Source: a virus
Virus record (IMG/VR): IMGVR_UViG_3300028792_000002
Coordinates: 1 to 40,179 of that record
DNA length: 40,179 nucleotides
Strand: one strand, 5' to 3'
In this document: positions 4,639 to 35,263 of the stretch, in pieces
Layout: each line of letters begins with the position of its first letter
How positions within the stretch are numbered: the stretch's first letter is position 1
The notes under the pieces: generated by a model
Seen by the model: the letters and a program-made list of their open reading frames with translations, nothing else
Databases searched by the model: none
What the model was told of the DNA's origin: nothing
Program-made: the position numbers and the translations under genes

Positions 4639-5700
4639 ATGACCCCCGAGCAGGCGCTGAACCTCGCCAAGACCGTCGCCGACCTGTACGCCGAAGCCAC
4701 CGCCCGCATCCTCACCCTCATCGCCGCCACCGCAGCGAAGGGGATGGAGTCGCCTGCGTGGCAGCAGGAACGCCTCGCCGAACTCGTGATCCTCCGCCGC
4801 AACACGGCCCGGATCGTCGCCGCGATGCAGCAGCACGGCACCAGCCAGGTGCTGACCGCGCTCGAGGAGGCCTACCGTGGTGGCCGGCTCACCCCAGCCC
4901 TCACCCGCCCCGGCATGGTCGCCGTACCCCAACGAGCAGTGGTCACGTTGGCGGCGGACACCACCCGGGTCCTCGACTCCACGGGCCCGCGGGTGCTCCG
5001 CTGGGCTGAGGACGTGTACCGGCAGGTGATCGCCGAGGCCGTCGGCCCCACCATCGTCGGCGTCGAAACCAGGCGTGAAGCTGCTGCCCGGGCGATGGAC
5101 CGGTTCGCTGCCCGGGGCGTCACCGGGTTCACCGACAGCGCGGGCCGGAACTGGGCCCTCGACACCTATGCGGAGATGGCCACCAGGACCGCAGCCGGCA
5201 CCGCCTACCGGGTGGGGAAGGTCGACCGGTTCCGCGAATCCGGCGTCTCCCTCGTCGTCGTGTCGGACTCCCCGGAGGAGTGCGAGGTGTGCCGCCCCTG
5301 GGAAGGCATGGTGCTCTCCCTGGACGGTGGGGAACCGACCGCGGCCGAGTTGGGCGGCGCCGAGTTCGGCGGCACCGTCGCTGACGCTGAAGCGGCCGGG
5401 ATCGGGCACCCGAACTGCACCCACACCTACGAAGCGTTCACCCCCGGGTTGACGGACACCCCGACGCCGGAGGCGAACCCGGACGGCTACCAGGCGCGGC
5501 AACGGCAGCGGGAGCTCGAACGGCGGGTGCGGGAGTCGAAGCGGCGGGTCGCCGCCCTGAAGCCGCTCGGGAAGACACCGCAGTTGGCGCGGGCGCAGCA
5601 GCTGCTCGGCGCCCGCCGTACCGCGCTGCTCGAGCACAACACGGCGTTCGACCGGAAGCAGCACGTGTCCGACCGACGGGTCCAGTTGACCCACCGCTGA
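4639..5700 (+). CDS. MuF-like / SPP1 gp7-like minor capsid (head morphogenesis) protein
   Basis: 353 aa directly after the portal gene. GIGHPNCTHTY motif (Mu F-type HPNC) and a basic coiled C-terminus. Confidence 0.85.
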   Translation: MTPEQALNLAKTVADLYAEATARILTLIAATAAKGMESPAWQQERLAELVILRRNTARIVAAMQQHGTSQVLTALEEAYRGGRLTPALTRPGMVAVPQRAVVTLAADTTRVLDSTGPRVLRWAEDVYRQVIAEAVGPTIVGVETRREAAARAMDRFAARGVTGFTDSAGRNWALDTYAEMATRTAAGTAYRVGKVDRFRESGVSLVVVSDSPEECEVCRPWEGMVLSLDGGEPTAAELGGAEFGGTVADAEAAGIGHPNCTHTYEAFTPGLTDTPTPEANPDGYQARQRQRELERRVRESKRRVAALKPLGKTPQLARAQQLLGARRTALLEHNTAFDRKQHVSDRRVQLTHR

Positions 5701-5705
5701 CCGGT

Positions 5706-5981
5706 GTGGCGGCTGACACTCCGGCCCGGACCGTGGGCGTCATGCAACGGACTTGGCTGCCCACAGCCCTCACCTGTCCCGCCTGCGGCCACGGATGGCA
5801 CCCCACCGGCACCTGCCCCGACTACATCGCCGCCGGTGGCGTCGCGACAGCGTGCGCCTGCCGATCCACCGAACGGAGCGGAACCTTGCGTCGAGCCGAA
5901 CCCCGGGCCTGCTGCAACACCACAGTCGCCGACCACCACCGGAACGACTGCCACCAGGTCACGGCCCGGGTGCCACGATGA
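5706..5981 (+). CDS. Cysteine-rich small protein (alternative start ATG 5742)
   Basis: CPACGHGWHPTGTCPDY plus further Cys/His (ACAC, ACC, NDCH). Stop overlaps the next ATG (ATGA). Confidence 0.45.
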   Translation: MAADTPARTVGVMQRTWLPTALTCPACGHGWHPTGTCPDYIAAGGVATACACRSTERSGTLRRAEPRACCNTTVADHHRNDCHQVTARVPR

Positions 5982-6247
5982 GCCTCGACATCCTCGCAGC
6001 ACTCGAAGCCACCCCCGCGCGGGGCGCAGGACGCTGCGGGATCGCCACCTTCCTCAACGGCATCCCGGCGGAGACGCCCGGCCGGGACGAACTCGTCCGC
6101 CTCGTCGAAACCCCCCACGACCGCGGCGGCCGCGCCGACACCAGGTCCGGGCAGTCCATGGCCGTCGTACTCACCCAGCTCGGCTACGAGACGACCCAGA
6201 ACCCGATCCTGGACCACCGGAACAAGGCCTGTCGGTGCTACCGGTGA
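5978..6247 (+). CDS. Hypothetical protein, 89 aa
   Basis: ATG 5978 is coupled to the upstream stop. Its own stop overlaps the GTG of the next gene (GTGA). Confidence 0.5.
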   Translation: MSLDILAALEATPARGAGRCGIATFLNGIPAETPGRDELVRLVETPHDRGGRADTRSGQSMAVVLTQLGYETTQNPILDHRNKACRCYR

Positions 6248-7470
6248 CCCTCGACATCACCGGTGCGCTCGCAGCCACCCGCCACGTCGGCACCATCGAA
6301 CACGAGCAGGCCGCCCAGGCTGGCACCATCCAGGTCGGGTCCGACGGCGGCGAGTTCAAGGACGTCACCGTCGACTCGGAGATCCTCGACAACGACTGGT
6401 CCCGGATCTTCCGGATCTTCAAGCTCAACCCCGACGAGTTCGAGGTGGTCGACGACACCGTCAAGATCACCACCTGGCAGCAGTCCAAGCGTCTCGAGAA
6501 CGGCGATCGGGACACCGTCCAACTCTGGTCGTACTCGGGGCGGTTCACGCGCCGTACCAAGGACCGGATCTCGCCGGCCGTGGTGGCCGAGTGGCGGACC
6601 GCGCTACGGGTGAAGTCCCGGGCGAAGAAGCCCGACCCGGTCACCGGGGGTGGCACCTACCCGATCTTGATCGCCGACCCGCAGCTGGGGAAGAAGGGCA
6701 CCGAGGAGGCTGTCGAGAACTACAAGCGGGGCGTCTCTGCCCACATCGCGGCGGCCCGCTCGCTGGCCGATGAGGTGGCTGGCGTGCACGTCGCATGGAT
6801 GGGCGACGAGACCGAGAACGTCGTCAACTCCTACGGCAACCAGCCGCACACCATCGAGCTCAACCGGTCCGAGCAGCTCGCCCTCGACTACGACCTGCGC
6901 GTGTGGGCGCTCCGCGAAGCACTGTCGCTCGGGAAGCCGACATCGGCGTCGTCGGTGATCTCCAACCACGGCGAGTGGACTCGCAACGGCGGCAAGGACC
7001 CGGTCACCAGCCAGGGCGACAACGCGTCCACGTTCATCGCCCGTCAGGTCAAGTCCCTGTTCGATGAGCTCGCACCGTTCACCGGGCAGACCGTCGAGTG
7101 GCACATCGGCGGGGGCGACCCCGGCGTCACGATCAACCTGTCCGGGGTGGAGTGCTACTTCTCCCACGGCTACATCGAGAAGGGCAAGGGCGGCTCCACC
7201 GAGATCCGAACCCGGGCCGCGATCGAACGGCAGATCCTCGGCAAGACTGACCAGCTCGGTGCGACGGCGCTGTGGTTCATGGCGCACTACCACCACTTCT
7301 ACAGCCAGGAGTTCGAGGGCCGGACCCTGTTCGGGTGCCCAGCGATCGAGGCGGAGCGGTCGTCGGAGTACATGCTGAACCAGTTCGGGGTGTGGTCGCC
7401 GCCGGGCGTGCTGGGGATGCTGGTCGGCGAGCACCACTCGCGTGGCTGGTCGAACCTGAACGTGTTCTGA
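6244..7470 (+). CDS. Calcineurin-like metallophosphoesterase-family protein, 408 aa
   Basis: Ordered motif series LIADPQLG / WMGDETEN / SNHGEW / FSHGY / AHYHHF, resembling metallophosphoesterase motifs I-V. The upstream part of track ORF 5704..7470 is rejected as non-coding. Confidence 0.7.
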   Translation: MTLDITGALAATRHVGTIEHEQAAQAGTIQVGSDGGEFKDVTVDSEILDNDWSRIFRIFKLNPDEFEVVDDTVKITTWQQSKRLENGDRDTVQLWSYSGRFTRRTKDRISPAVVAEWRTALRVKSRAKKPDPVTGGGTYPILIADPQLGKKGTEEAVENYKRGVSAHIAAARSLADEVAGVHVAWMGDETENVVNSYGNQPHTIELNRSEQLALDYDLRVWALREALSLGKPTSASSVISNHGEWTRNGGKDPVTSQGDNASTFIARQVKSLFDELAPFTGQTVEWHIGGGDPGVTINLSGVECYFSHGYIEKGKGGSTEIRTRAAIERQILGKTDQLGATALWFMAHYHHFYSQEFEGRTLFGCPAIEAERSSEYMLNQFGVWSPPGVLGMLVGEHHSRGWSNLNVF

Positions 7471-7502
7471 CCCGCTGACACCGGCCGCCGCAACCTGCTG
7501 CC

Positions 7503-8258
7503 ATGACTCAGCCCACGGAGTACGCCACCTTCGGCGCCCCCATCACGCCCGACACCATCGGCGACCTCATCGCCTTCCACCGCGCCACCTTCGGCGGCTA
7601 CCGCATGGAGGGCGAGACCACGTCGACCGACACCGGTACGGCGACCACAGACAGCGGTGGCACCAGCACGGGAGCCACAACCACCACGACGAGCGACTCC
7701 ACGTCGACCGGTGCCACCGCCGAGGAGAAGAAGCTCGACCTCACCCAGGCCGGGCTGGACCGCATCATCGCGGAGCGGCTCGCCAAGGAGCGGAAGATGT
7801 TCGAGCAGCAGCTCGCCGAGGTCCAGGCGACCGCGGGGAAGACCGAGCTCGAAGCCGCACAGATCAAGGCCCAGCAGGCCGAGGAGCGCGTCGGGTCCGT
7901 CACGAAGGAGTCCGCGCAGCGCGTCGCCGGCGCCGAGGCCAAGCTGGCCGCCCACCTCGCGGGTGCGAAGAAGGACCGTCTCGAAGCCGTCCTGAAGCAG
8001 GCCGACCTCACCGACGCGGTTGCTGCTGACGGCACCGTGGACTCGGCGAAGGTGCAGACCGCGATCGACAAGGTGCTCGCCGACTACCCGGAGTGGAAGG
8101 GCACCACCATCACGACGCCGGGTGGTGAGCTGAAGCAGGGCGAGACGGGGAAGCGGGTGTGGTCGCGGTCGGAGATCGCGGCCCTGTCGGCGGCGGACCG
8201 GAAGGCGCACCTGGCGGACATCAACGCGGCGGCGGCCGAGGGCCGCATCAAGGACTGA
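7503..8258 (+). CDS. Scaffolding protein
   Basis: 251 aa, rich in Ala/Glu/Lys/Gln with helical character and a Thr/Ser/Gly-rich N-terminal linker. Position upstream of the major capsid gene. Confidence 0.75.
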   Translation: MTQPTEYATFGAPITPDTIGDLIAFHRATFGGYRMEGETTSTDTGTATTDSGGTSTGATTTTTSDSTSTGATAEEKKLDLTQAGLDRIIAERLAKERKMFEQQLAEVQATAGKTELEAAQIKAQQAEERVGSVTKESAQRVAGAEAKLAAHLAGAKKDRLEAVLKQADLTDAVAADGTVDSAKVQTAIDKVLADYPEWKGTTITTPGGELKQGETGKRVWSRSEIAALSAADRKAHLADINAAAAEGRIKD

Positions 8259-23718: not shown

Positions 23719-24564
23719 ATGAACGCACGCATCGACGGGATCGACCTGTCCCACTGGCAGGGCGGCGCCCTCGACTTCGGCACCGCCAAGCGCGCCGGCG
23801 TCCGGTTCGTGTTCCACAAGGCCACCGAGGGCACCGGCAGCAAGGACCCGAACTACGGCCACCGTCGTGACGAGGTCGCCGCCGCAGGGATCCCGTTCGG
23901 CGCCTACCACTTCGCCAGGCCCGCCGCGTCCGACGGCAAGACCCAGGCCCGCTACTTCCTGTCCGTCGCCAGGCCCCGGCCGGGCGACATGCGGCCCATG
24001 CTCGACCTCGAGGACGCGGGCGGCCTGCAGACGGGGCGGCTCACCGTCTGGGTGCGGGACTTCGTCGCCGAGGTCGCCAAGGAGACCGGCGTCAAGCCGA
24101 TCATCTACACGTCGTTCACCCTCGAGGACCACTGGGACTGTGCCCTCTGGGTGGCCCGATACTCCGACGCCATGAACCCGCCCCGGGTCCCGATGCCGTG
24201 GCGGCAGTGGACGATCTGGCAGTTCTCCAACGGCGAGTTCGGCCACCCGTCCACCGTGCCGGGCATCGGGCGCTGCGACATCAACACGATCAACAGCCAC
24301 GACCCCGGCCGCGTCGTCGAGGCCCTGCGCATCGGGCACACCGATGCGCCGCCGGAGCCGCAGCCGAAGCCGCTCGAGCGGCCGGCCACCCCGACCCGCG
24401 TGCTCCGCGCCCGGGACCAGCTGCACGTCGCGCTCAACGCCACGAACACGGCGCTCGCGCTCTGTACCGCCTCGAAGCGACCGCGGGCCCTGCTCGCGGC
24501 CGTCGTACTCCGCCGCGCCGTGAAGCTGCTGCAGCGCAGCCTCACCACCCTCCCGCCCGACTGA
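23719..24564 (+). CDS. Endolysin, glycoside hydrolase family 25 muramidase
   Basis: GIDLSHWQG, FVFHKATEG and FGAYHFARP motifs typical of GH25. About 80 aa of unassigned C-terminus. Confidence 0.85.
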   Translation: MNARIDGIDLSHWQGGALDFGTAKRAGVRFVFHKATEGTGSKDPNYGHRRDEVAAAGIPFGAYHFARPAASDGKTQARYFLSVARPRPGDMRPMLDLEDAGGLQTGRLTVWVRDFVAEVAKETGVKPIIYTSFTLEDHWDCALWVARYSDAMNPPRVPMPWRQWTIWQFSNGEFGHPSTVPGIGRCDINTINSHDPGRVVEALRIGHTDAPPEPQPKPLERPATPTRVLRARDQLHVALNATNTALALCTASKRPRALLAAVVLRRAVKLLQRSLTTLPPD

Positions 24565-24578
24565 CCCCTGGAGCACCC

Positions 24579-24770
24579 ATGATCCCGTCCTCCGTCGCCC
24601 GCACCGCCAAGGCCGTCGCCGCCCTGCTCGTCTGCGCGGCCGCGTACCTCGTCGGCATCCTGTCCGGCAACCAGACCCTCGGTGACGTCACCACCGTCCA
24701 GTGGCTCGGCCTCGTCGTGTTCATGGGCGGCGCCTACGGCATCACGTACGCCGTCCCGAACCGCCGCTGA
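24579..24770 (+). CDS. Holin-like membrane protein, 63 aa
   Basis: Two hydrophobic helices (AVAALLVCAAAYLVGIL, WLGLVVFMGGAYGITYA). Immediately after the endolysin gene. Confidence 0.6.
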   Translation: MIPSSVARTAKAVAALLVCAAAYLVGILSGNQTLGDVTTVQWLGLVVFMGGAYGITYAVPNRR

Positions 24771-24822
24771 CACACGGCCCCCGACTCTGGGGGTCCAGCA
24801 CCCGCGACCGACAAGGCCACCC

Positions 24823-25290
24823 ATGGTCCACTTCCTGACCTCCACCGCCGGCATCATCACCAGCGTGGGAGCCGCCTGCCTGCTGCTGGCGGGACTCGGG
24901 AAGTGGCTGTACGGCACCAAGAAGCAGCCCGGCGTCTTCCGCAAGCTGGGCGCCGACGGCCGCGCCATCCGCGACACCCTCGTCGGCCGCGACGCCATCC
25001 ACGACAGCATCACCGGCGAGGAACTCTCCCCAGCGATCCTCGGTGTCGGCGCACGCATGGCCCACCAGGAGTCCGAGACCAGCGAGATCAAGGACGCCGT
25101 CACTTCCCTCGCCTCGTCCGTCGCCACCCTCGTTGACCTGCGCACCGAGATCACCGACCTGACCGGCCGGGTGGCGCACATCGAGACGGCGATCGGGATG
25201 GAGCGTCACCTGAAGGGCCTCGAGTCGGTGCAGCTGCTGCGGACCATCGAGTCCGTCGCGACCGGCGAACCACCCACTGTCGGCGACTGA
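24823..25290 (+). CDS. Membrane-anchored coiled protein, 155 aa (lysis accessory candidate)
   Basis: N-terminal TM helix (IITSVGAACLLLAGLG) followed by a helical region. Last gene of the late operon. Confidence 0.55.
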   Translation: MVHFLTSTAGIITSVGAACLLLAGLGKWLYGTKKQPGVFRKLGADGRAIRDTLVGRDAIHDSITGEELSPAILGVGARMAHQESETSEIKDAVTSLASSVATLVDLRTEITDLTGRVAHIETAIGMERHLKGLESVQLLRTIESVATGEPPTVGD

Positions 25291-25406: not shown

Positions 25407-25518
25407 ACCGGTCCCACGAGGTCCCCAGGCACCCCCAGCCGACACCCCCGAAACACGGGCTGACCTGCACGAACAGCCCTCGCGTCACCTCGGGCCCTAC
25501 TATGCCCTGAGCGCCCGA

Positions 25519-25568
25519 TCAGACTTCTAATCTGTTGGTCGCAGGTTCGAATCCTGCCGGGGGCGCCC
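25519..25568 (+). other. attP core: 3' half of a tRNA-Arg(TCT)
   Basis: Anticodon stem-loop with CTTCTAA loop (25524-25530), variable loop, T-arm GCAGG-TTCGAAT-CCTGC and 3' acceptor strand CGGGGGC. No matching 5' acceptor strand or D-arm upstream. Confidence 0.75.
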
Positions 25569-26771
25569 TGTTTCAGTCGCCCACTGGGGCAGATCTGGGG
25601 CAGCGGGCAGCAGACTGCTGACGCTGGCGCTGCTCTTCTTCCGCTCCAGGTGGGCGTACCGCTCCGTGGTCACGATCGATGCGTGGCCGAGCAGGTCCCG
25701 CACCTCCTCGAGCGTCTTCCCGCCCTGCAGCAGCCACGACGCGTACGTGTGCCGCAGGTCGTGCACTCGCGGTCGGGGGTGCACCCCGGACCGGCAGTCC
25801 GGGCATCCCGGGACGGGTACGGCCTGCTCGAGCTCACGATGCTTGCGGCAGACCATCGGGGACACGGCAGGCAGCCACACCCGGTTCGTCCAGTTGGTGT
25901 CCCGCAGCACCGCGCCCCCGGCGGTGGTGAACAGCAGCGGCCCCCGGCAGCGACCGACCGCGTGCGGCACCGGGCACGGCCCGGGCGGCCGGTCCACCTC
26001 GAGCAGCACCTTCATCAACCACGCCGGGACCGGGACGGTGCGCGCGCTCCGCGACTTCGGGTACGCCTTGATCCGGTGGGACTTCTCGTCGTACGTCTCG
26101 ATGATCCGGACGGCCTGCAGGTCGGGGATCAGCCGGTCCACGTGCATGCCGGCCATCTCCCCCCACCGGACCCCGGTGTTGGCGAGGAACTGGGCGACCA
26201 GCCAGTCGAGCAGGCTTGGCAGGTCGTCGACGATGCTCTCGAACTCGGGGACGGTCAGGTACCGCTCGACGGCCTGGGCGCCCTTCGGCAGCTTGATCCG
26301 GGCGGCCGGGTTCGCGTCGAGGATCTCGGCGTCGACGGCCGCGGCGAGGCTGGCCGACAGCAGGTGCACCTGCCGCTGCACGGTCGACGGCGACAGGCCG
26401 GTGCGGAGCAGTCCGGCGGCCCACGCCTTCACGTCGTGGCGACGGATCGACCCGATCGGTACGGCACCCCACCGGGGCCGCAGGTGGTGGTCCCGGTTCG
26501 AGGACTGGGTGACCAGGGTGGACGCTTCGACGGTGCGGGTGGGCCACCACTCGTCGACCCACTCACCCCAGGTGCGGCGGCCGGCGTCCGGGTCGGCCCA
26601 GATCGACTTCCGGGCGTCGGTCTCCTTCGACCCGGCTTCGCGGACCGCCTCGGCCTTGTGGGTGAACAGGCGGGTCTTCCCGGCGGTGTCCTTGACGGTG
26701 TGCTTGCGGCCGTGGTGGTCGCGGTAGAGGCCGCGGTACTTGCCGGACGGCAGCTTCTCGGACCACGCCAT
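25527..26771 (-). CDS. int: Tyrosine integrase
   Basis: 414 aa from MAWSEKLPSGKYRGLYRD. Catalytic-type motifs GVRWGE, HDLRHTYASW and LGHASIVTTERYAHL. Adjacent to the tRNA-derived attP. Confidence 0.9.
   Translation of the reverse strand: MAWSEKLPSGKYRGLYRDHHGRKHTVKDTAGKTRLFTHKAEAVREAGSKETDARKSIWADPDAGRRTWGEWVDEWWPTRTVEASTLVTQSSNRDHHLRPRWGAVPIGSIRRHDVKAWAAGLLRTGLSPSTVQRQVHLLSASLAAAVDAEILDANPAARIKLPKGAQAVERYLTVPEFESIVDDLPSLLDWLVAQFLANTGVRWGEMAGMHVDRLIPDLQAVRIIETYDEKSHRIKAYPKSRSARTVPVPAWLMKVLLEVDRPPGPCPVPHAVGRCRGPLLFTTAGGAVLRDTNWTNRVWLPAVSPMVCRKHRELEQAVPVPGCPDCRSGVHPRPRVHDLRHTYASWLLQGGKTLEEVRDLLGHASIVTTERYAHLERKKSSASVSSLLPAAPDLPQWATETGRPRQDSNLRPTD
25584..25603 (+). repeat. Two direct CTGGGGCAG copies (candidate arm-type Int sites, P' arm)
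   Basis: CTGGGGCAG at 25584 and 25595, in the same orientation as the left pair and 200 bp away from it. Confidence 0.5.
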
Positions 26772-27130
26772 CAGCAGTCCATGAAGGCGGCGTAGTCGCG
26801 TTGACCGCTGGTCCGCTGGTCGGCGGGCACGTAGCAGCCGTCGACGTCGAGGGCCCGGGGCTTGCCGCCGTTGCAGCCGGCCGCGGTCATCGAGTCGCCG
26901 ATGTAGCCCATCAGGTCGGCGTTGGACCCGTTCTTCCCGACCCGGTCGGCGGTGTCGAACGCGAGCTGCAGGGTGTCGCAGTCCCGGCCGGCGCGGGCCT
27001 GGTCGATGTGCGTGTGGATGCTGTGTGAGTAGCGGGACCAGTCGACCTTGGTGAGGCCGTTGTCGTCGCGGCTGCTCGAGCAGCCCGCCAGCAGGAGTAC
27101 GGCGGCGGCGACCGCGATCAGGGGGCGCAT
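26771..27130 (-). CDS. Secreted lipoprotein, 119 aa
   Basis: Signal peptide MRPLIAVAAAVLLLAGC with lipobox LAGC. Four further Cys. Its TGA overlaps the int ATG. Confidence 0.75.
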   Translation of the reverse strand: MRPLIAVAAAVLLLAGCSSSRDDNGLTKVDWSRYSHSIHTHIDQARAGRDCDTLQLAFDTADRVGKNGSNADLMGYIGDSMTAAGCNGGKPRALDVDGCYVPADQRTSGQRDYAAFMDC

Positions 27131-27390
27131 CAGATCTGGGACAGCTTGGAGGCGGAGTCGAGCAGGGCAACCTTGCGGACGATGGCAGCGACCATCGCCT
27201 GCCGGCCGAGCCGGAGCGACACGATGACGGTCCAGCAGGCGGCCGCTGCGGCGAGCAGGATCGCCCAGCCGAGGCCGACGATGCTGGGCCTGGTGATCGT
27301 CAGCCAGATCATGCCGCCGACGGCTGCACCCCACAGGAGTACGGCGCCGATGGCGATGGCCGGGAACTGGACTCGCTTGCACTCGTTCAC
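27130..27390 (-). CDS. Small two-helix membrane protein, 86 aa
   Basis: GTG preceded by GAGGGAG. Hydrophobic helices AIAIGAVLLWGAAVGGMIWLTI and IVGLGWAILLAAAAACWTVIVSL. Its TGA overlaps the lipoprotein ATG. Confidence 0.6.
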   Translation of the reverse strand: MNECKRVQFPAIAIGAVLLWGAAVGGMIWLTITRPSIVGLGWAILLAAAAACWTVIVSLRLGRQAMVAAIVRKVALLDSASKLSQI

Positions 27391-27494
27391 TGGTGAATCT
27401 CCCTCGTGGTCGTGAACGTGCCCTCCCCCGTGGATGGGCAACGGCAAGGAGTCTTTACCGTTCCGGGTGGGTTTGTCGGTGCTTCGGGTGACGA

Positions 27495-27530
27495 TGGTCC
27501 GAAGGGACCAGTTCGAACACCTGTTCGAAC
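27495..27530 (-). promoter_or_regulatory. Twin GTTCGAAC palindromes plus a short hairpin just after the repressor stop
   Basis: GTTCGAAC at 27511-27518 and 27523-27530, 4 nt apart. TGGTCC-n4-GGACCA at 27495-27510. Confidence 0.5.
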
Positions 27531-28129
27531 TATGAGCCCGTCGCACGGCCCTGCCCACCCTCTCCGTTGATGGCCCGCTCGAGGCGTTGAACCTCGCCGC
27601 GGTGGACGTCCACAGCGGGTTGCAGGAGCGGGTCGTCGCCGGCCGCTTCGATCGCGTCGGCGAGCCGTCGGCGGGCGACGTCGAGTTCCCGTTCGAGCTG
27701 GCGCCGCGACTGGGGCCGGAGCCGGGTTGCTCCTTCGACGTCCTCGACCTCGCGGCGTACGACGTCCGGCGATGCCGCGGCGGCGTGGTGGCGGGTGAGT
27801 TGCCGGATCAGGGAGTCGACCAGCTTCCGCTGTTCGGCGTCGAGCAGGGACGCCGCCGCCGGGGGTTCGTAGGCGGCGTCGATAGCCAGTGCCCGGCCGG
27901 CCCATGCGGCGACCTGGGCGACGTCGACGTTGAGCACCTGGGCGGTGCGTTCGATGGTGGGCAGGTCAGTCTCCCGTTCCCCCCAGATCATCGAGGTGAT
28001 GGTGGAGGTGTGGACACCTACGTGTTGGGCGAGCTGGCTCATGGATGGCCGGGGGTCTGTGTACCTCGGGTCGACCATGCCAGCGGTCACCATCGCTGAT
28101 GCCCACGGCTCGGGAACTTCACGTTTCAT
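27530..28129 (-). CDS. CI-like repressor (XRE-type HTH)
   Basis: 199 aa. HTH segment MSQLAQHVGVHTSTITSMIWGERETDLPTIERTAQVLNV. Divergent from the cro-like gene. Confidence 0.8.
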   Translation of the reverse strand: MKREVPEPWASAMVTAGMVDPRYTDPRPSMSQLAQHVGVHTSTITSMIWGERETDLPTIERTAQVLNVDVAQVAAWAGRALAIDAAYEPPAAASLLDAEQRKLVDSLIRQLTRHHAAAASPDVVRREVEDVEGATRLRPQSRRQLERELDVARRRLADAIEAAGDDPLLQPAVDVHRGEVQRLERAINGEGGQGRATGS

Positions 28130-28321
28130 GTCACTGACTCTCTAGCGGCATTACACAACGCACAAGGCAGCAGCGTAGACGGGTCGTACACAACTTCCAC
28201 GGTTGTAATGGGGGACTGAGCGGGAAAAAGGTTCGGGAAGTAGTAGACAGACCCATGTACGTGTGTCTAATGTCTACTCCAACGCACAACGACCCACCTG
28301 ACACCCCAGAAGGAGCAGCAC
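28130..28321. promoter_or_regulatory. Divergent genetic-switch region with repeated motifs and a candidate rightward promoter
   Basis: TACACAAC at 28152 and 28187, with GTTGTAAT at 28203 as an imperfect inverted copy. CAACGCACAA at 28156 and 28280. Inverted repeat AGTAGACA (28242) / TGTCTACT (28271). TAGACA-N18-TAATGT at 28244-28273. Confidence 0.6.
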
Positions 28322-28618
28322 ATGATCCGAACCGAAGGGAGGTTGGACTGCCGGCTGGCGGTGTCGCACGACATCCTGGCGGCCGAGATGGAGTTCAAGG
28401 ACTTCTCCGTGACCACGCTCTACCGGGCGGTCCGTGACCGGCTCCCGAAGACCACTCCCCTCTCCCGGGCCACCATCGGGCACCTGCGTTCCGGTCACCG
28501 CCGGAACGTGCGGGCCGACGTGGCCCGCGAGATCGAGAAGGTTCTGCAGGTCCGCCGCGGAAGCTTGTTCGAGACGCGTGTTTCTAACGTCTCGCGCGAG
28601 GTTGGACGCACGTCGTGA
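28322..28618 (+). CDS. Cro-like HTH regulator, 98 aa
   Basis: AAGGAG RBS. HTH-like LSRATIGHLRSGHRRNVRADVAREIEKVL. First rightward gene. Confidence 0.7.
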   Translation: MIRTEGRLDCRLAVSHDILAAEMEFKDFSVTTLYRAVRDRLPKTTPLSRATIGHLRSGHRRNVRADVAREIEKVLQVRRGSLFETRVSNVSREVGRTS

Positions 28619-33207: not shown

Positions 33208-33437
33208 TGCAGTTCACCGCCGGCACCGCCCAGATCCCCGCCCAGCGCCTCGAACCGTGGAAGCCGCCACCCCGCTGGTGGACCTGCACCGGCCCCGACT
33301 GCGAAGACGTCACCTGGCACGGCGACCCAATCTGCTGGTGCTGCGGTGCTGGCACCCACGTCACGTTCGGGGCACGCCCCCTCGTGCACAACCTCTGGCT
33401 TCCTCTCCGACGCCCCGACTGGAGCAACCACGCATGA
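33207..33437 (+). CDS. Cys-rich hypothetical protein, 76 aa
   Basis: WTCTGPDCEDVTWHGDPICWCC. Stop overlaps the methyltransferase ATG. Confidence 0.5.
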   Translation: MQFTAGTAQIPAQRLEPWKPPPRWWTCTGPDCEDVTWHGDPICWCCGAGTHVTFGARPLVHNLWLPLRRPDWSNHA

Positions 33438-35263
33438 CCCTCACCATCACCGACCTGTTCTGCGGAGGAGGTGGGAGCTCGACCGGCGCCATCCAGGTGC
33501 CCGGCGTCGAGATCCGCATCGCCGCGAACCACTGGGACCTCGCCGTCCAGGTCCACAACCAGAACCACCCGACCGCCGACCACGCCGCCGTCGACCTCCA
33601 CGAGGAAGACCCCCGCTACTTCCCGAAGACCGACATCCTGTGGGCGTCCCCGGAGTGCACGAAGTGGTCGCAGGCGTCCGGCGGGAAGTACCGGTCCGTG
33701 TCGTTCGAGGACGACCTGCTGTCCCTGCTCGACTCCGACCTGGTCGACGAGGACCCCGAGACGGCGATCGTGCAACGGTCCCGGCTGCTGATGTTCGACG
33801 TCCTCCGGTTCGCCGAGCACCACAAGTACGCCGCCATGGTCATCGAGAACGTCGTCGACATCGCGACGAACCCGAAGTTCGCGGAGGCGTGGGCGCTGTG
33901 GAAGAAGTCGCTGGGCCGGCTCGGCTACGACTTCCGTGTCGTCTCCCTGAACAGCATGCACGCGCAGGCGCACGGCGACCCGGCACCCCAGTCCCGGGAC
34001 CGGCTCTACATCGTCTGCTGGCTCAAGGGCAACCGGGCCCCTGACGTCGACAAGGTGATGCGACCGCTCGCCTGGTGCCCGACCTGTCAGGCGGTCGTGG
34101 AGTCGCAGCAGGTGTGGAAGAACGGCCGCACCGTCGGCAAGTACCGGAGCCAGTACGTCTACCTTCACGGCGGCTGCGGGACGACGGTCGAGCCGGGCTA
34201 CCTCCCGGCGGCCGCGGCGATCGACTGGACGATGCGGGGCAGCCGCATCGGGGACCGGGCGAAGCCGCTCGCGGACAAGACCCGGCGTCGGATCGCGGCC
34301 GGGATCGCGAAGTATTGGTCCCCGTTCCACATGGAGTCGGGTGGCAACCAGTACGACGCGGCTGACCCGAAGCACGTGGCGTTCGGCGACCCGAACGGCT
34401 ACTACCGGGCCTGGTCGATGCTCGACACGTTGAAGACCCTGCACACGCAGGAGACGAAGGCGCTGGTGGTGCCGCTCGAGGGCCGCGCCGGCGACCGGAT
34501 CAGCACGGCGGACGTCCCGCTGCGGACGCAGACGAGTCGTCACCTCGACGCGGTGGCCATGCCGCCGTTCCTGACGCAGTTCCGGGAGCGCGTCCGCGAC
34601 CTCGACCCCACCGAGAAGCCGTTCCCGACGATCGTGGCGGATGGGGCCAGCCATGGACTGGTGTCGCCGCCGTTCATCGCCGAGCTGCGCGGCGGCGGAT
34701 CCACCGCCCGGCCGGTCTCGGAGCCCGCCTCGACGTTCACCGCGTCCGGCAACCACCACGGCCTCGTCGTACCGGCCGGCGGCACCTGGAACGACGACGC
34801 GCGGCCGACCGACGAGGTGCACCGCACGATGACGACCAGGGAGACGTCTGCGCTCGTCATGCCGTACTACGGCGCCACCGCGTCCGCGCAGCCCGACAGC
34901 AAGCCGCTGGGCACCGTCACCACGGTCGACCGGCACGCGCTCATCCAGCGGCACAACTCCAGCAAGGGCGACGGCGCCGAGATGGTCACCCCCGCCCACG
35001 AGGTCCTCCGGACGCTCACCACCACCGCGCAGCAGTCGATCCTCACCCCCGGCGACATCAAGGCCGCCGAGGCCCAGGTCGACGACTGCCTCTTCCGGAT
35101 GCTCGAGCCCCACGAGGTCGCAGCCGGGATGGCGTTCCCCGCCGACTACATCTGGGGCGGCACCCGCCGTGAGCGGGTCAAGCTCTGCGGCAACGCGGTC
35201 ACCCCGCCGGCCGCCCGGGACCTGATCGCCGCCGTGGTCGAGTCGCTCGGCGGTGCGGCGTGA
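33434..35263 (+). CDS. DNA (cytosine-5) methyltransferase, 609 aa, no adjacent restriction enzyme recognised
   Basis: Motif I DLFCGGGG, motif IV SPECTKWS, motif VI VIENV, motif VIII QSRDRLYIV, motif X GNAVTPPAA. Confidence 0.85.
   Translation: MTLTITDLFCGGGGSSTGAIQVPGVEIRIAANHWDLAVQVHNQNHPTADHAAVDLHEEDPRYFPKTDILWASPECTKWSQASGGKYRSVSFEDDLLSLLDSDLVDEDPETAIVQRSRLLMFDVLRFAEHHKYAAMVIENVVDIATNPKFAEAWALWKKSLGRLGYDFRVVSLNSMHAQAHGDPAPQSRDRLYIVCWLKGNRAPDVDKVMRPLAWCPTCQAVVESQQVWKNGRTVGKYRSQYVYLHGGCGTTVEPGYLPAAAAIDWTMRGSRIGDRAKPLADKTRRRIAAGIAKYWSPFHMESGGNQYDAADPKHVAFGDPNGYYRAWSMLDTLKTLHTQETKALVVPLEGRAGDRISTADVPLRTQTSRHLDAVAMPPFLTQFRERVRDLDPTEKPFPTIVADGASHGLVSPPFIAELRGGGSTARPVSEPASTFTASGNHHGLVVPAGGTWNDDARPTDEVHRTMTTRETSALVMPYYGATASAQPDSKPLGTVTTVDRHALIQRHNSSKGDGAEMVTPAHEVLRTLTTTAQQSILTPGDIKAAEAQVDDCLFRMLEPHEVAAGMAFPADYIWGGTRRERVKLCGNAVTPPAARDLIAAVVESLGGAA

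Follow-up and report, generated by a model that had tools for sequence, protein, structure and literature searches.

What is the function of two small genes that lie between the immunity-repressor candidate and the integrase gene of a temperate phage? The question is raised by the virus record IMGVR_UViG_3300028792_000002 of the IMG/VR database, the 40,179 bases of which are referred to here as the window. Its minus strand encodes an 86-amino-acid (aa) membrane protein (TM86), a 119-aa lipoprotein (Lpp119) and a tyrosine integrase (Int) in a closely packed chain, and the initial annotation had suggested that the products of the first two genes form an envelope-located superinfection-exclusion system. 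According to the analysis described here, Lpp119 belongs to an unnamed, previously undescribed protein family with a predicted lipid- or transmembrane (TM)-anchored three-helix domain and an invariant cysteine pair. Superinfection exclusion at the level of the envelope or of DNA entry is the best guess for its function, albeit a tentative one, which makes Lpp119 a plausible candidate rather than a system of established function. TM86 and Lpp119 do not form a conserved pair. The chain consists of the following features.

27390..27130, minus strand: TM86 gene, 86 aa (GTG start at 27390, TGA stop at 27132-27130)
27130..26771, minus strand: Lpp119 gene, 119 aa (ATG start at 27130, TGA stop at 26773-26771)
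26771..25527, minus strand: int gene, tyrosine integrase, 414 aa (ATG start at 26771, TAG stop at 25529-25527)
27132-27128, minus strand: TGATG junction of TM86 and Lpp119, stop and start sharing one A (overlap of 1 nucleotide, nt)
26773-26769, minus strand: TGATG junction of Lpp119 and int, stop and start sharing one A (1-nt overlap)
27405-27399, minus strand: Shine-Dalgarno sequence GAGGGAG, 8 nt 5' of the TM86 GTG, the sole recognisable ribosome-binding site of the chain
27080..27130, minus strand: predicted signal peptide and lipobox of Lpp119, MRPLIAVAAAVLLLAG followed by C, with Cys17 as the lipid-attachment residue
26867..27055, minus strand: conserved domain of about 65 aa in Lpp119 (residues 26-88), delimited by HMMER, alignments and AlphaFold2 (AF2), holding Cys51 and Cys86
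26774..26866, minus strand: C-terminal extension of Lpp119 (residues 89-119) with the cysteine pair C99/C119, modelled at lower confidence (predicted local distance difference test, pLDDT, 67-74)

Open reading frames (ORFs), TM prediction and the G+C content at third codon positions (GC3) agree on the two-helix 86-aa membrane protein, the 119-aa lipoprotein and int as initially annotated, and the two overlaps that chain the three genes were both read directly. GC3 amounts to 0.92 for TM86, 0.97 for Lpp119 and 0.93 for int, as against 0.52-0.54 for competing long ORFs of the same region, and the high-GC3 frame of a sliding frame plot changes exactly at the two TGATG junctions. Neither Lpp119 nor int is preceded by a GGAGG-like site of its own within 15 nt, which fits translational coupling. 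Judged from the gene coordinates, 4-nt stop/start overlaps occur at least eight times among the other genes of the genome; since they are so routine, the overlaps within the chain represent operon packing and no special functional bond.

The Lpp119 lipoprotein and its family

Lpp119 starts with MRPLIAVAAAVLLLAGC, and its N-terminal region (M-R-PLIAVAAAVLL-L-A-G-C17) ends in a canonical L-A-G-C lipobox. A lipoprotein signal was defined by a positive n-region, a hydrophobic h-region and a lipobox of the form [LVI][ASTVI][GAS]C. When the whole window was scanned in six frames from every possible start, Lpp119 had the sole canonical signal, and the one other match was a pseudo-lipobox within TM86. 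Lpp119 thereby has the sequence by which a bacterial lipoprotein is defined (a substrate of Lgt and LspA) and is strongly predicted to be exported and lipid-anchored via Cys17 on the outer face of the cytoplasmic membrane. As noted initially, the lipobox is followed by four more cysteines, namely Cys51, Cys86, Cys99 and Cys119. Disulfides are to be expected, because conserved cysteine pairs are typical of extracytoplasmic disulfides.

Mature Lpp119 is acidic, with an isoelectric point (pI) of 5.07. The AF2 model, built on an alignment of 52 sequences, has a pLDDT of 83.7 and a predicted template modelling score (pTM) of 0.72. It places helices at mature residues 20-31, 35-48 and 55-67, followed by a less confident extension with a final helix at 92-101. 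Lpp119 is strongly predicted by this model to fold as a small acidic three-helix bundle, which a disulfide between C51 and C86 would hold together. In the alignment, the C-terminal extension with its second cysteine pair is common only to the two closest homologues of Lpp119, P0003 (51% identity) and P0004.

The initial annotation had recognised no homology for either protein. This still holds for TM86, for which a word-seeded search among 5.8 billion proteins brought up nothing but the query, and it no longer holds for Lpp119. An exhaustive phmmer search with mature Lpp119 against 1.84 billion representative sequences yielded 60 hits at E<=1e-3, that is, 59 relatives and Lpp119 itself, with best non-self E-values of 3e-17 and 3e-11. 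The word-seeded search of the 5.8 billion proteins had found only the query for Lpp119 too, a null result that reflects the sensitivity limit of this method, because the exhaustive HMMER scan recovered the family. A profile built from the family retrieves Lpp119 at 1.1e-18. The search with this profile produced 51 proteins, none of which carries a Pfam domain or an informative name.

Family members range from 67 to 239 aa, most of them having 80-130 aa. A regular-expression search located a lipobox at the equivalent place in 38 of the 60 members; most of the others are either TM-anchored at the N-terminus or incomplete at that end. The consensus of about 65 aa reads VDW..Y...V..RID.....DC..LQ.EFD.AD.N...NADLM.YID..M..AGCY, and C51, F58 and C86 (Lpp119 numbering) are invariant in the alignments. 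Among the genome matches are Demequina sediminis and a Nanopelagicales metagenome-assembled genome (MAG), both from the Actinomycetota, as well as a Limnocylindrales MAG.

Of the profile and structure searches that the initial annotation had recommended, HMMER uncovered the family, and curated libraries and Foldseek returned nothing. For Lpp119, there was no Pfam match at E<=1 beyond signal-peptide noise, the outcome being the same with PHROGs and NCBIfam, and no PADLOC-DB 2.0 family at E<=1. Fifty-two family members likewise gave no meaningful Pfam or PHROG match. Weak PHROG matches of Lpp119 to Rz-like spanin and Cor families (E 0.04-0.2) cover only the signal peptide, residues 1-23. Foldseek comparison of the Lpp119 model with the PDB and BFVD gave best E-values of about 3-5, with none better than 4.6 in the PDB, and the PDB profile search with the family gave a single irrelevant match (E 2.1). 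By tblastn, neither Lpp119 nor a consensus-like family member was found in 50,697 deposited phages, nor was the latter, the only query used there, found in 72,556 plasmids. A metagenome contig scan for the int-adjacent subfamily produced 444 pattern matches, none of which was confirmed, and two scans of viral contigs recovered the same single contig each time.

Genomic positions of the family and its neighbours

About 16 distinct loci with family members were examined. In L010/L011, the gene for P0003 lies directly upstream of an int gene closely related to that of the window, with the same 1-nt overlap (position 1471). Three other members, those of L016 (an IMG/VR contig of 38.6 kb), L026 (a prophage within a MAG from NCBI) and L030 (a phage contig), are encoded on the opposite strand just past the lysis cassette, where they adjoin attP/int or the genome end. 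The P0093 gene (6001-6312 in L028/L029), found on 11 contigs, stands on the opposite strand amid the structural operon, between the head-tail and tail genes, which is the arrangement of a textbook moron. A further member belongs to the early region of a phage (L005). In MAGs and genomes, members were found beside integrases or mobile-element-like genes in L014, L019/L020 and L007, and by eye only in L015 and L013. The L007 locus (5537-7563) is a chromosomal island next to an integrase fragment. It contains two divergently transcribed, divergent paralogues of 91 and 110 aa, in addition to an 85-aa two-TM protein and another lipoprotein of 176 aa. This is how a cargo gene acquired and reshuffled by phages would be expected to be distributed.

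TM86 is a basic protein (pI 10.9) with an amphipathic, basic C-terminal tail. Kyte-Doolittle windows reveal two TM segments, and its AF2 model consists of the long helices 8-33 and 35-84 (pLDDT 72.7). Because of the charge distribution, both termini are predicted to reside in the cytoplasm, leaving about four residues (TRPS) outside. The search that matched TM86 only to itself was word-seeded, no exhaustive scan having been made; in addition, no fetched related locus contained a match, nor did Pfam, and no PADLOC-DB 2.0 family matched at E<=1. A 142-aa version starting at 27558 was rejected, as its upstream part has a GC3 of 0.71 and spans hairpins, and the Shine-Dalgarno sequence precedes 27390. 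If translation is begun at the internal ATG (Met27), the stretch 27235-27312 with the second TM helix resembles, probably by coincidence, a weak lipoprotein signal (…LLAAAAAC52).

The proposal that TM86 and Lpp119 act as a pair is not borne out by comparison with other loci. In a blastn comparison, L010 and the window match colinearly at 66% nucleotide identity over a stretch that starts within the Lpp gene and runs through int, with no similarity farther upstream. The gene ahead of Lpp in L010 codes for a 166-aa helix-turn-helix (HTH) protein, followed by a gap of 143 nt, and TM86 is missing, so the nearest Lpp homologue adjoins int without it. Because the similarity stops inside the Lpp gene, Lpp and int appear as an inherited module and TM86 as phage-specific. 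None of the other approximately 15 family loci has a TM86-like neighbour, and no small TM partner homologous across the loci was found. An overlapping upstream ORF of L019/L020 would encode a 134-aa protein with three TM segments; its coding signal is weak, with a GC3 of 0.67 below the value of 0.71 at first codon positions (GC1). As a separate observation, the int gene of L010 (1471-2397) loses both similarity and frame after about 300 aa when compared with the 414-aa integrase of the window. The cause is either a frameshift in the assembly of L010, a Logan contig with low coverage, or decay of the element.

The integrase of the window is a member of Pfam Phage_integrase (PF00589) and phrog_1, and its start (MAWSEKLPSGKYRG...) is conserved in the phage MinS1 and in L010, L022 and L023. 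The closest integrase found by tblastn is that of MinS1, with 49% identity. The slot between repressor and int in MinS1 comprises a repressor-like HTH gene, an ImmA/IrrE peptidase gene and a gene for an unrelated 107-aa lipoprotein (phrog_13160), from which int is separated by 3 nt. This lipoprotein was considered as a distant member of the Lpp family and rejected, given an hhalign probability of 0.3%. In the Gordonia phages Catfish and Banquo and in the IMG/VR contig L023, the repressor is followed by a gene for a multi-TM protein of about 240-260 aa that overlaps int. The proteins of Catfish and Banquo (about 259 aa) belong to phrog_18889, and the integrases of these phages are 35-39% identical to that of the window; phage TinaLin has the same annotation, its locus not having been inspected. 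The slot of L022 holds only an HTH gene. The MinS1, Catfish and Banquo proteins share with Lpp119 the position, the strand and the tight packing against, or overlap with, int, and they have no assigned function. They differ in their unrelated sequences and, in MinS1, in the ImmA-type peptidase that takes the place of TM86. The slot is variable among related integrases and mostly filled by envelope proteins. 

An observation of its own concerns the source of this comparison. 'Microcystis phage MinS1' (L001, MZ923504.1) is recorded with Microcystis aeruginosa as host; the fetched 9-kb region has a G+C content of 72% and harbours an actinophage-like lysogeny module (HTH, ImmA peptidase, lipoprotein and int) together with a second tyrosine recombinase. 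The recorded host assignment looks doubtful.

The remaining features of the window referred to below are these.

25504..25565, plus strand: tRNA-like segment overlapping the 3' end of int (Rfam tRNA, 30.2 bits, gathering threshold 29)
27391..27529, minus strand: spacer of 139 nt between the repressor stop and TM86
27496..27531, minus strand: double hairpin right after the repressor stop, AGUUCGAAC-AGGU-GUUCGAACU and then GGUCC-CUUC-GGACC, with no U tract
27530..28129, minus strand: HTH immunity-repressor candidate, 199 aa (Pfam HTH_3; phrog_13730 'transcriptional repressor', 5e-19)
28322-28618, plus strand: cro-like gene, divergent from the repressor (phrog_14639)
23719-24564, plus strand: GH25-type endolysin
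24579-24770, plus strand: 63-aa holin-like protein, with one Kyte-Doolittle TM window and a second helix by eye
24823-25290, plus strand: 155-aa TM protein of the lysis cassette
33257-35263, plus strand: DNA methyltransferase of the early region, 668 aa (phrog_116, 6e-65)

With a G+C content of 69.7%, the window looks like the complete genome of a temperate siphophage that has a high-GC bacterium as its host. The same genome is also present as a 40,193-bp metagenome contig and absent from the deposited-phage collection, and its portal protein has 36% identity with the portals of Streptomyces phages. Up to about 23.7 kb, the plus strand is taken up by the genes for terminase, portal, tape measure and tail, followed by the lysis cassette (plus strand), the attP core, the minus-strand lysogeny genes, the divergent cro-like gene and the early genes, whose 668-aa methyltransferase possibly serves anti-restriction self-methylation. 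The last 13 or so codons of int lie on the complement of the tRNA-like segment, 60 nt of which are 86.7% identical to MinS1, where the sequence is likewise found beside int. ARAGORN detected no full tRNA at 25504-25565. The segment is the probable attP core, and a tRNA gene (Arg-TCT by eye) would be the target.

The initial annotation had placed the chain downstream of the repressor gene, which is correct with respect to gene order and strand. Co-transcription of the two is possible; it is not supported, since the 139-nt spacer with its strong double hairpin intervenes. The double hairpin has a free energy (dG) of -19.9 kcal/mol (z = -3.86), and none of 200 shuffled sequences was as stable. 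It is built from the tandem 12-mers ACCAGTTCGAAC and ACCTGTTCGAAC, each of which contains the palindrome GTTCGAAC, occurring at this single place in the window; the structure was also scored as an inverted repeat. The minus strand of the spacer contains no sigma-70-like promoter, no U-tailed terminator (consensus scan) and no Rfam family. From its sequence, the double hairpin could be a U-less terminator or attenuator, or a protein-binding palindrome, that controls read-through into the TM86-Lpp-int operon. Candidate operator sites are found near the repressor and cro-like genes, namely an exact 10-nt direct repeat CAACGCACAA at 28156-28165 and 28280-28289 in the intergenic region (124 nt apart) and a 12-nt inverted repeat at 28053-28064 / 28243-28254.

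Candidate functions

Superinfection exclusion at DNA entry is the best-supported reading of Lpp119 because of its position, which is like that of Ltp from the streptococcal phage TP-J34, the moron distribution of its family together with the precedent of repressor-linked defence genes in actinophages, and its resemblance in kind to Spackle of phage T4. Lpp119 would be a moron, an accessory gene dispensable for making virions that the phage retains for what it does to the envelope of the lysogen. A single message is strongly predicted to carry TM86, Lpp119 and int, with ribosomes loading at TM86 and the downstream genes starting on the preceding stop codon. Tethered in the wall zone, Lpp119 might attach to part of the tail tip of an incoming phage, for example its tape measure protein or a cell-wall hydrolase associated with the tail, so that the genome of this phage would not be delivered, in the manner of Ltp and Spackle. 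TM86 would be no obligate partner in this process. It may represent a lineage-specific hairpin inserted ahead of the pre-existing Lpp-int module, and it may add a block within the membrane like T4 Imm or act unrelatedly. Nothing beyond adjacency ties it to Lpp119.

Several observations weigh against this assignment. In sequence as well as in predicted fold, Lpp119 resembles neither Ltp nor Spackle, nor any further experimental structure or viral model (best Foldseek E about 3-5), and there is no PADLOC match. The family members of L004, L017 and L018 reside in ordinary-looking chromosomal surroundings with no sign of a mobile element within the flanks, and for this reason the domain may have a cellular role unrelated to phages; its ancestry is possibly cellular. 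Given the pair of hairpins and the lack of a recognised promoter, expression in the lysogen is an assumption. The chaining to int could also mean that the genes are expressed mainly when lysogeny is established or during excision.

The same chromosomal loci (L004, L017 and L018) would suit a lysogenic-conversion or immunity factor that is not directed at phages, for instance an orphan extracytoplasmic immunity protein against a toxin or wall hydrolase that rival bacteria secrete or deliver by contact, or a modulator of a host envelope process, carried because it raises the fitness of the lysogen. The divergent paralogues standing side by side in L007 fit this role as well, and there is a precedent in Mycobacterium abscessus, where several prophage-borne immunity proteins of polymorphic toxins are predicted lipoproteins (PMC8092301). 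A small acidic binder with predicted disulfides would suit an inhibitor of basic extracellular enzymes in general. Neither the window nor the phage loci examined, however, contain an adjoining toxin, WXG/LXG or secretion gene, and the strong bias of the family towards phage and integrase neighbourhoods, together with the Ltp-like slot, favours a phage-directed role. A conversion or immunity factor is considered rather unlikely, though worth keeping in mind. That TM86 and Lpp119 are an obligate two-component exclusion system of the envelope, one docking or activating the other, is appreciably less probable. Their adjacency, translational coupling and single ribosome-binding site would agree with such a system, as would their complementary placement, one within the membrane and one at its outer surface, and the joint action of Imm and Spackle in T4 (PMC7677548). 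The membrane hairpin, however, has no homologue in the word-seeded search, no TM gene accompanies the nearest Lpp homologue (51% identity), which is coupled to int, and none of the other approximately 15 loci offers a TM86-like neighbour. The upstream three-TM ORF of L019/L020, which could count as such a partner, is compromised by its weak coding signal (GC3 0.67 < GC1 0.71), the four or so residues that TM86 exposes leave little surface for contact with Lpp119, and stop/start overlaps are routine in this genome.

The coupling itself might be what matters, in which case both small ORFs would be translated leaders that set the integrase level via reinitiation, their products being of little importance. 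Lpp119 and int, which have no Shine-Dalgarno sequence of their own and start on the preceding stop, are compatible with this idea, and so are the 1-nt overlap with int kept in L010 and the gap of 3 nt in MinS1. It is nevertheless very improbable, as the protein sequence of Lpp119 is maintained throughout a large family and in many contexts without int, and the GC3 of 0.92-0.97 along with the intact signal, lipobox and cysteine pattern argues for selection on the products; moreover, coupling can coexist with protein function. An accessory role in lysis, as a holin, antiholin or spanin-like pair, is hardly credible and was rejected. A small membrane protein and a lipoprotein superficially recall an i-spanin/o-spanin pair, and weak PHROG matches lead to Rz-like spanin and Cor families. 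These matches are confined to the signal peptide (residues 1-23; E 0.04-0.2, with the spanin match at E 0.2), the phage has a separate lysis cassette on the plus strand at 23719-25290, and TM86 and Lpp119 belong to the lysogeny operon with int. As the relatives are actinobacterial phages, an outer membrane that would call for spanins is not expected.

Exclusion at the envelope thus stays the preferred, if tentative, reading, and its consequences are worth stating. To our knowledge, very few entry-level exclusion proteins of Gram-positive phages have been described, chiefly Ltp and the lactococcal Sie proteins, and we know of no established entry exclusion protein in high-GC actinobacterial phages, where the described prophage defences are mostly intracellular. 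What is new here is an undescribed phage-borne lipoprotein family that has a confident model unmatched in the two structure libraries searched. Although no Pfam, PHROG, NCBIfam or PADLOC model covers it, the family turns up repeatedly in uncultured phages, at places typical of morons. With proteins of about 100 aa, a confident model and a simple phenotype, it is a concrete and cheap target for experiments. If the family blocks entry, a gene family in many metagenomic phages would be annotated, its target would reveal how siphophage tails cross the actinobacterial envelope, and the result would be relevant to the prediction of phage host ranges. If Lpp119 is an immunity or conversion factor instead, it would still represent a new extracytoplasmic domain.

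Comparison with known exclusion and defence systems

The lipoprotein Ltp of the Streptococcus thermophilus phage TP-J34 blocks DNA injection; its active part is a repeat domain of tandem helical repeats, and its gene belongs to the series int, ltp, metalloproteinase and cI-like repressor (PMC3952083). The order repressor, TM86, Lpp119 and int, all on the minus strand of the window, corresponds to this location, and the order in MinS1 (repressor, ImmA, lipoprotein, int) is that of TP-J34. Lpp119 resembles Ltp in its predicted lipoprotein tether on the outer face of the cytoplasmic membrane, presumably likewise in a Gram-positive host, in the placement of its gene immediately ahead of int and on the same strand as the repressor, in a short Ser-rich stretch after the lipidated cysteine (CSSS) and in having a small, helical part as the presumed active one. 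It differs from Ltp in sequence, as there is no similarity in Pfam at E<=1, a database that holds an Ltp lipoprotein model, and no match in the PDB profile and Foldseek searches. Lpp119 also has a single three-helix domain with a cysteine extension and predicted conserved disulfides in place of the repeat domain, and the window deviates from TP-J34 in the stop/start overlap with int and in the extra membrane-protein gene upstream. The Ltp-type likeness seen initially is consequently one of location and anchoring and does not extend to sequence homology or domain architecture.

Cor (of the phi80/HK022 type) and Llp (of T5) are outer-membrane lipoproteins of phages with Gram-negative hosts that inactivate the FhuA receptor. 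Like them, Lpp119 is a small phage-encoded lipoprotein, and they protect against superinfection at entry; the only match to Cor (phrog_1119, E 0.037) is limited to the signal peptide, residues 1-21.

Defence genes that are repressor-linked or co-transcribed and expressed in the lysogen are known as gp43/gp44 of the Gordonia phage CarolAnn and gp30/gp31 of the Mycobacterium phage Sbash (PMC6426606). They share with the genes of the window a variable central region, a membrane protein as one partner and an origin in actinobacterial temperate siphophages. The CarolAnn and Sbash pairs are RexAB-like, with a four-TM protein and a cytoplasmic DUF4747-like protein that cause abortive infection, whereas the window encodes a two-TM hairpin and a predicted exported lipoprotein, for which Pfam, PHROGs and PADLOC indicated no homology to the RexAB-like pair.

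In phage T4, exclusion is exerted by the membrane protein Imm together with the periplasmic Spackle (gp61.3), a disulfide-bonded helical bundle of 75 aa that inhibits the tail lysozyme by attaching to its basic surface (PMC7677548). The Lpp119 domain, a predicted helical bundle of about 65 aa with an acidic pI and an invariant cysteine pair that would form a disulfide, is similar in kind, and TM86 and Lpp119 parallel Imm and Spackle as a membrane protein and an extracytoplasmic one. Imm is a small inner-membrane protein. Unlike Lpp119, Spackle becomes soluble upon cleavage of its signal peptide and has no lipid anchor. T4 itself is lytic, makes its exclusion proteins early in infection and does not carry their genes beside an integrase. 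The hit lists that Foldseek and the PDB profile search gave for Lpp119 contain no Spackle structure, although the PDB has included such structures since 2020.

The Lpp family might even constitute a widespread new class of superinfection-exclusion proteins in phages of the Actinomycetota and neighbouring phyla, one that resembles Ltp, Spackle, Cor and Llp in neither sequence nor fold. Its members would bind the tape measure protein or the tail lysin at the outer face of the membrane, and TM86 would have been recruited as a block within the membrane, yielding a convergent counterpart of Imm and Spackle. This extended scenario is speculative and unlikely to hold in full. Lpp119 belongs to neither the Ltp nor the Spackle family, yet it may act like either of them.

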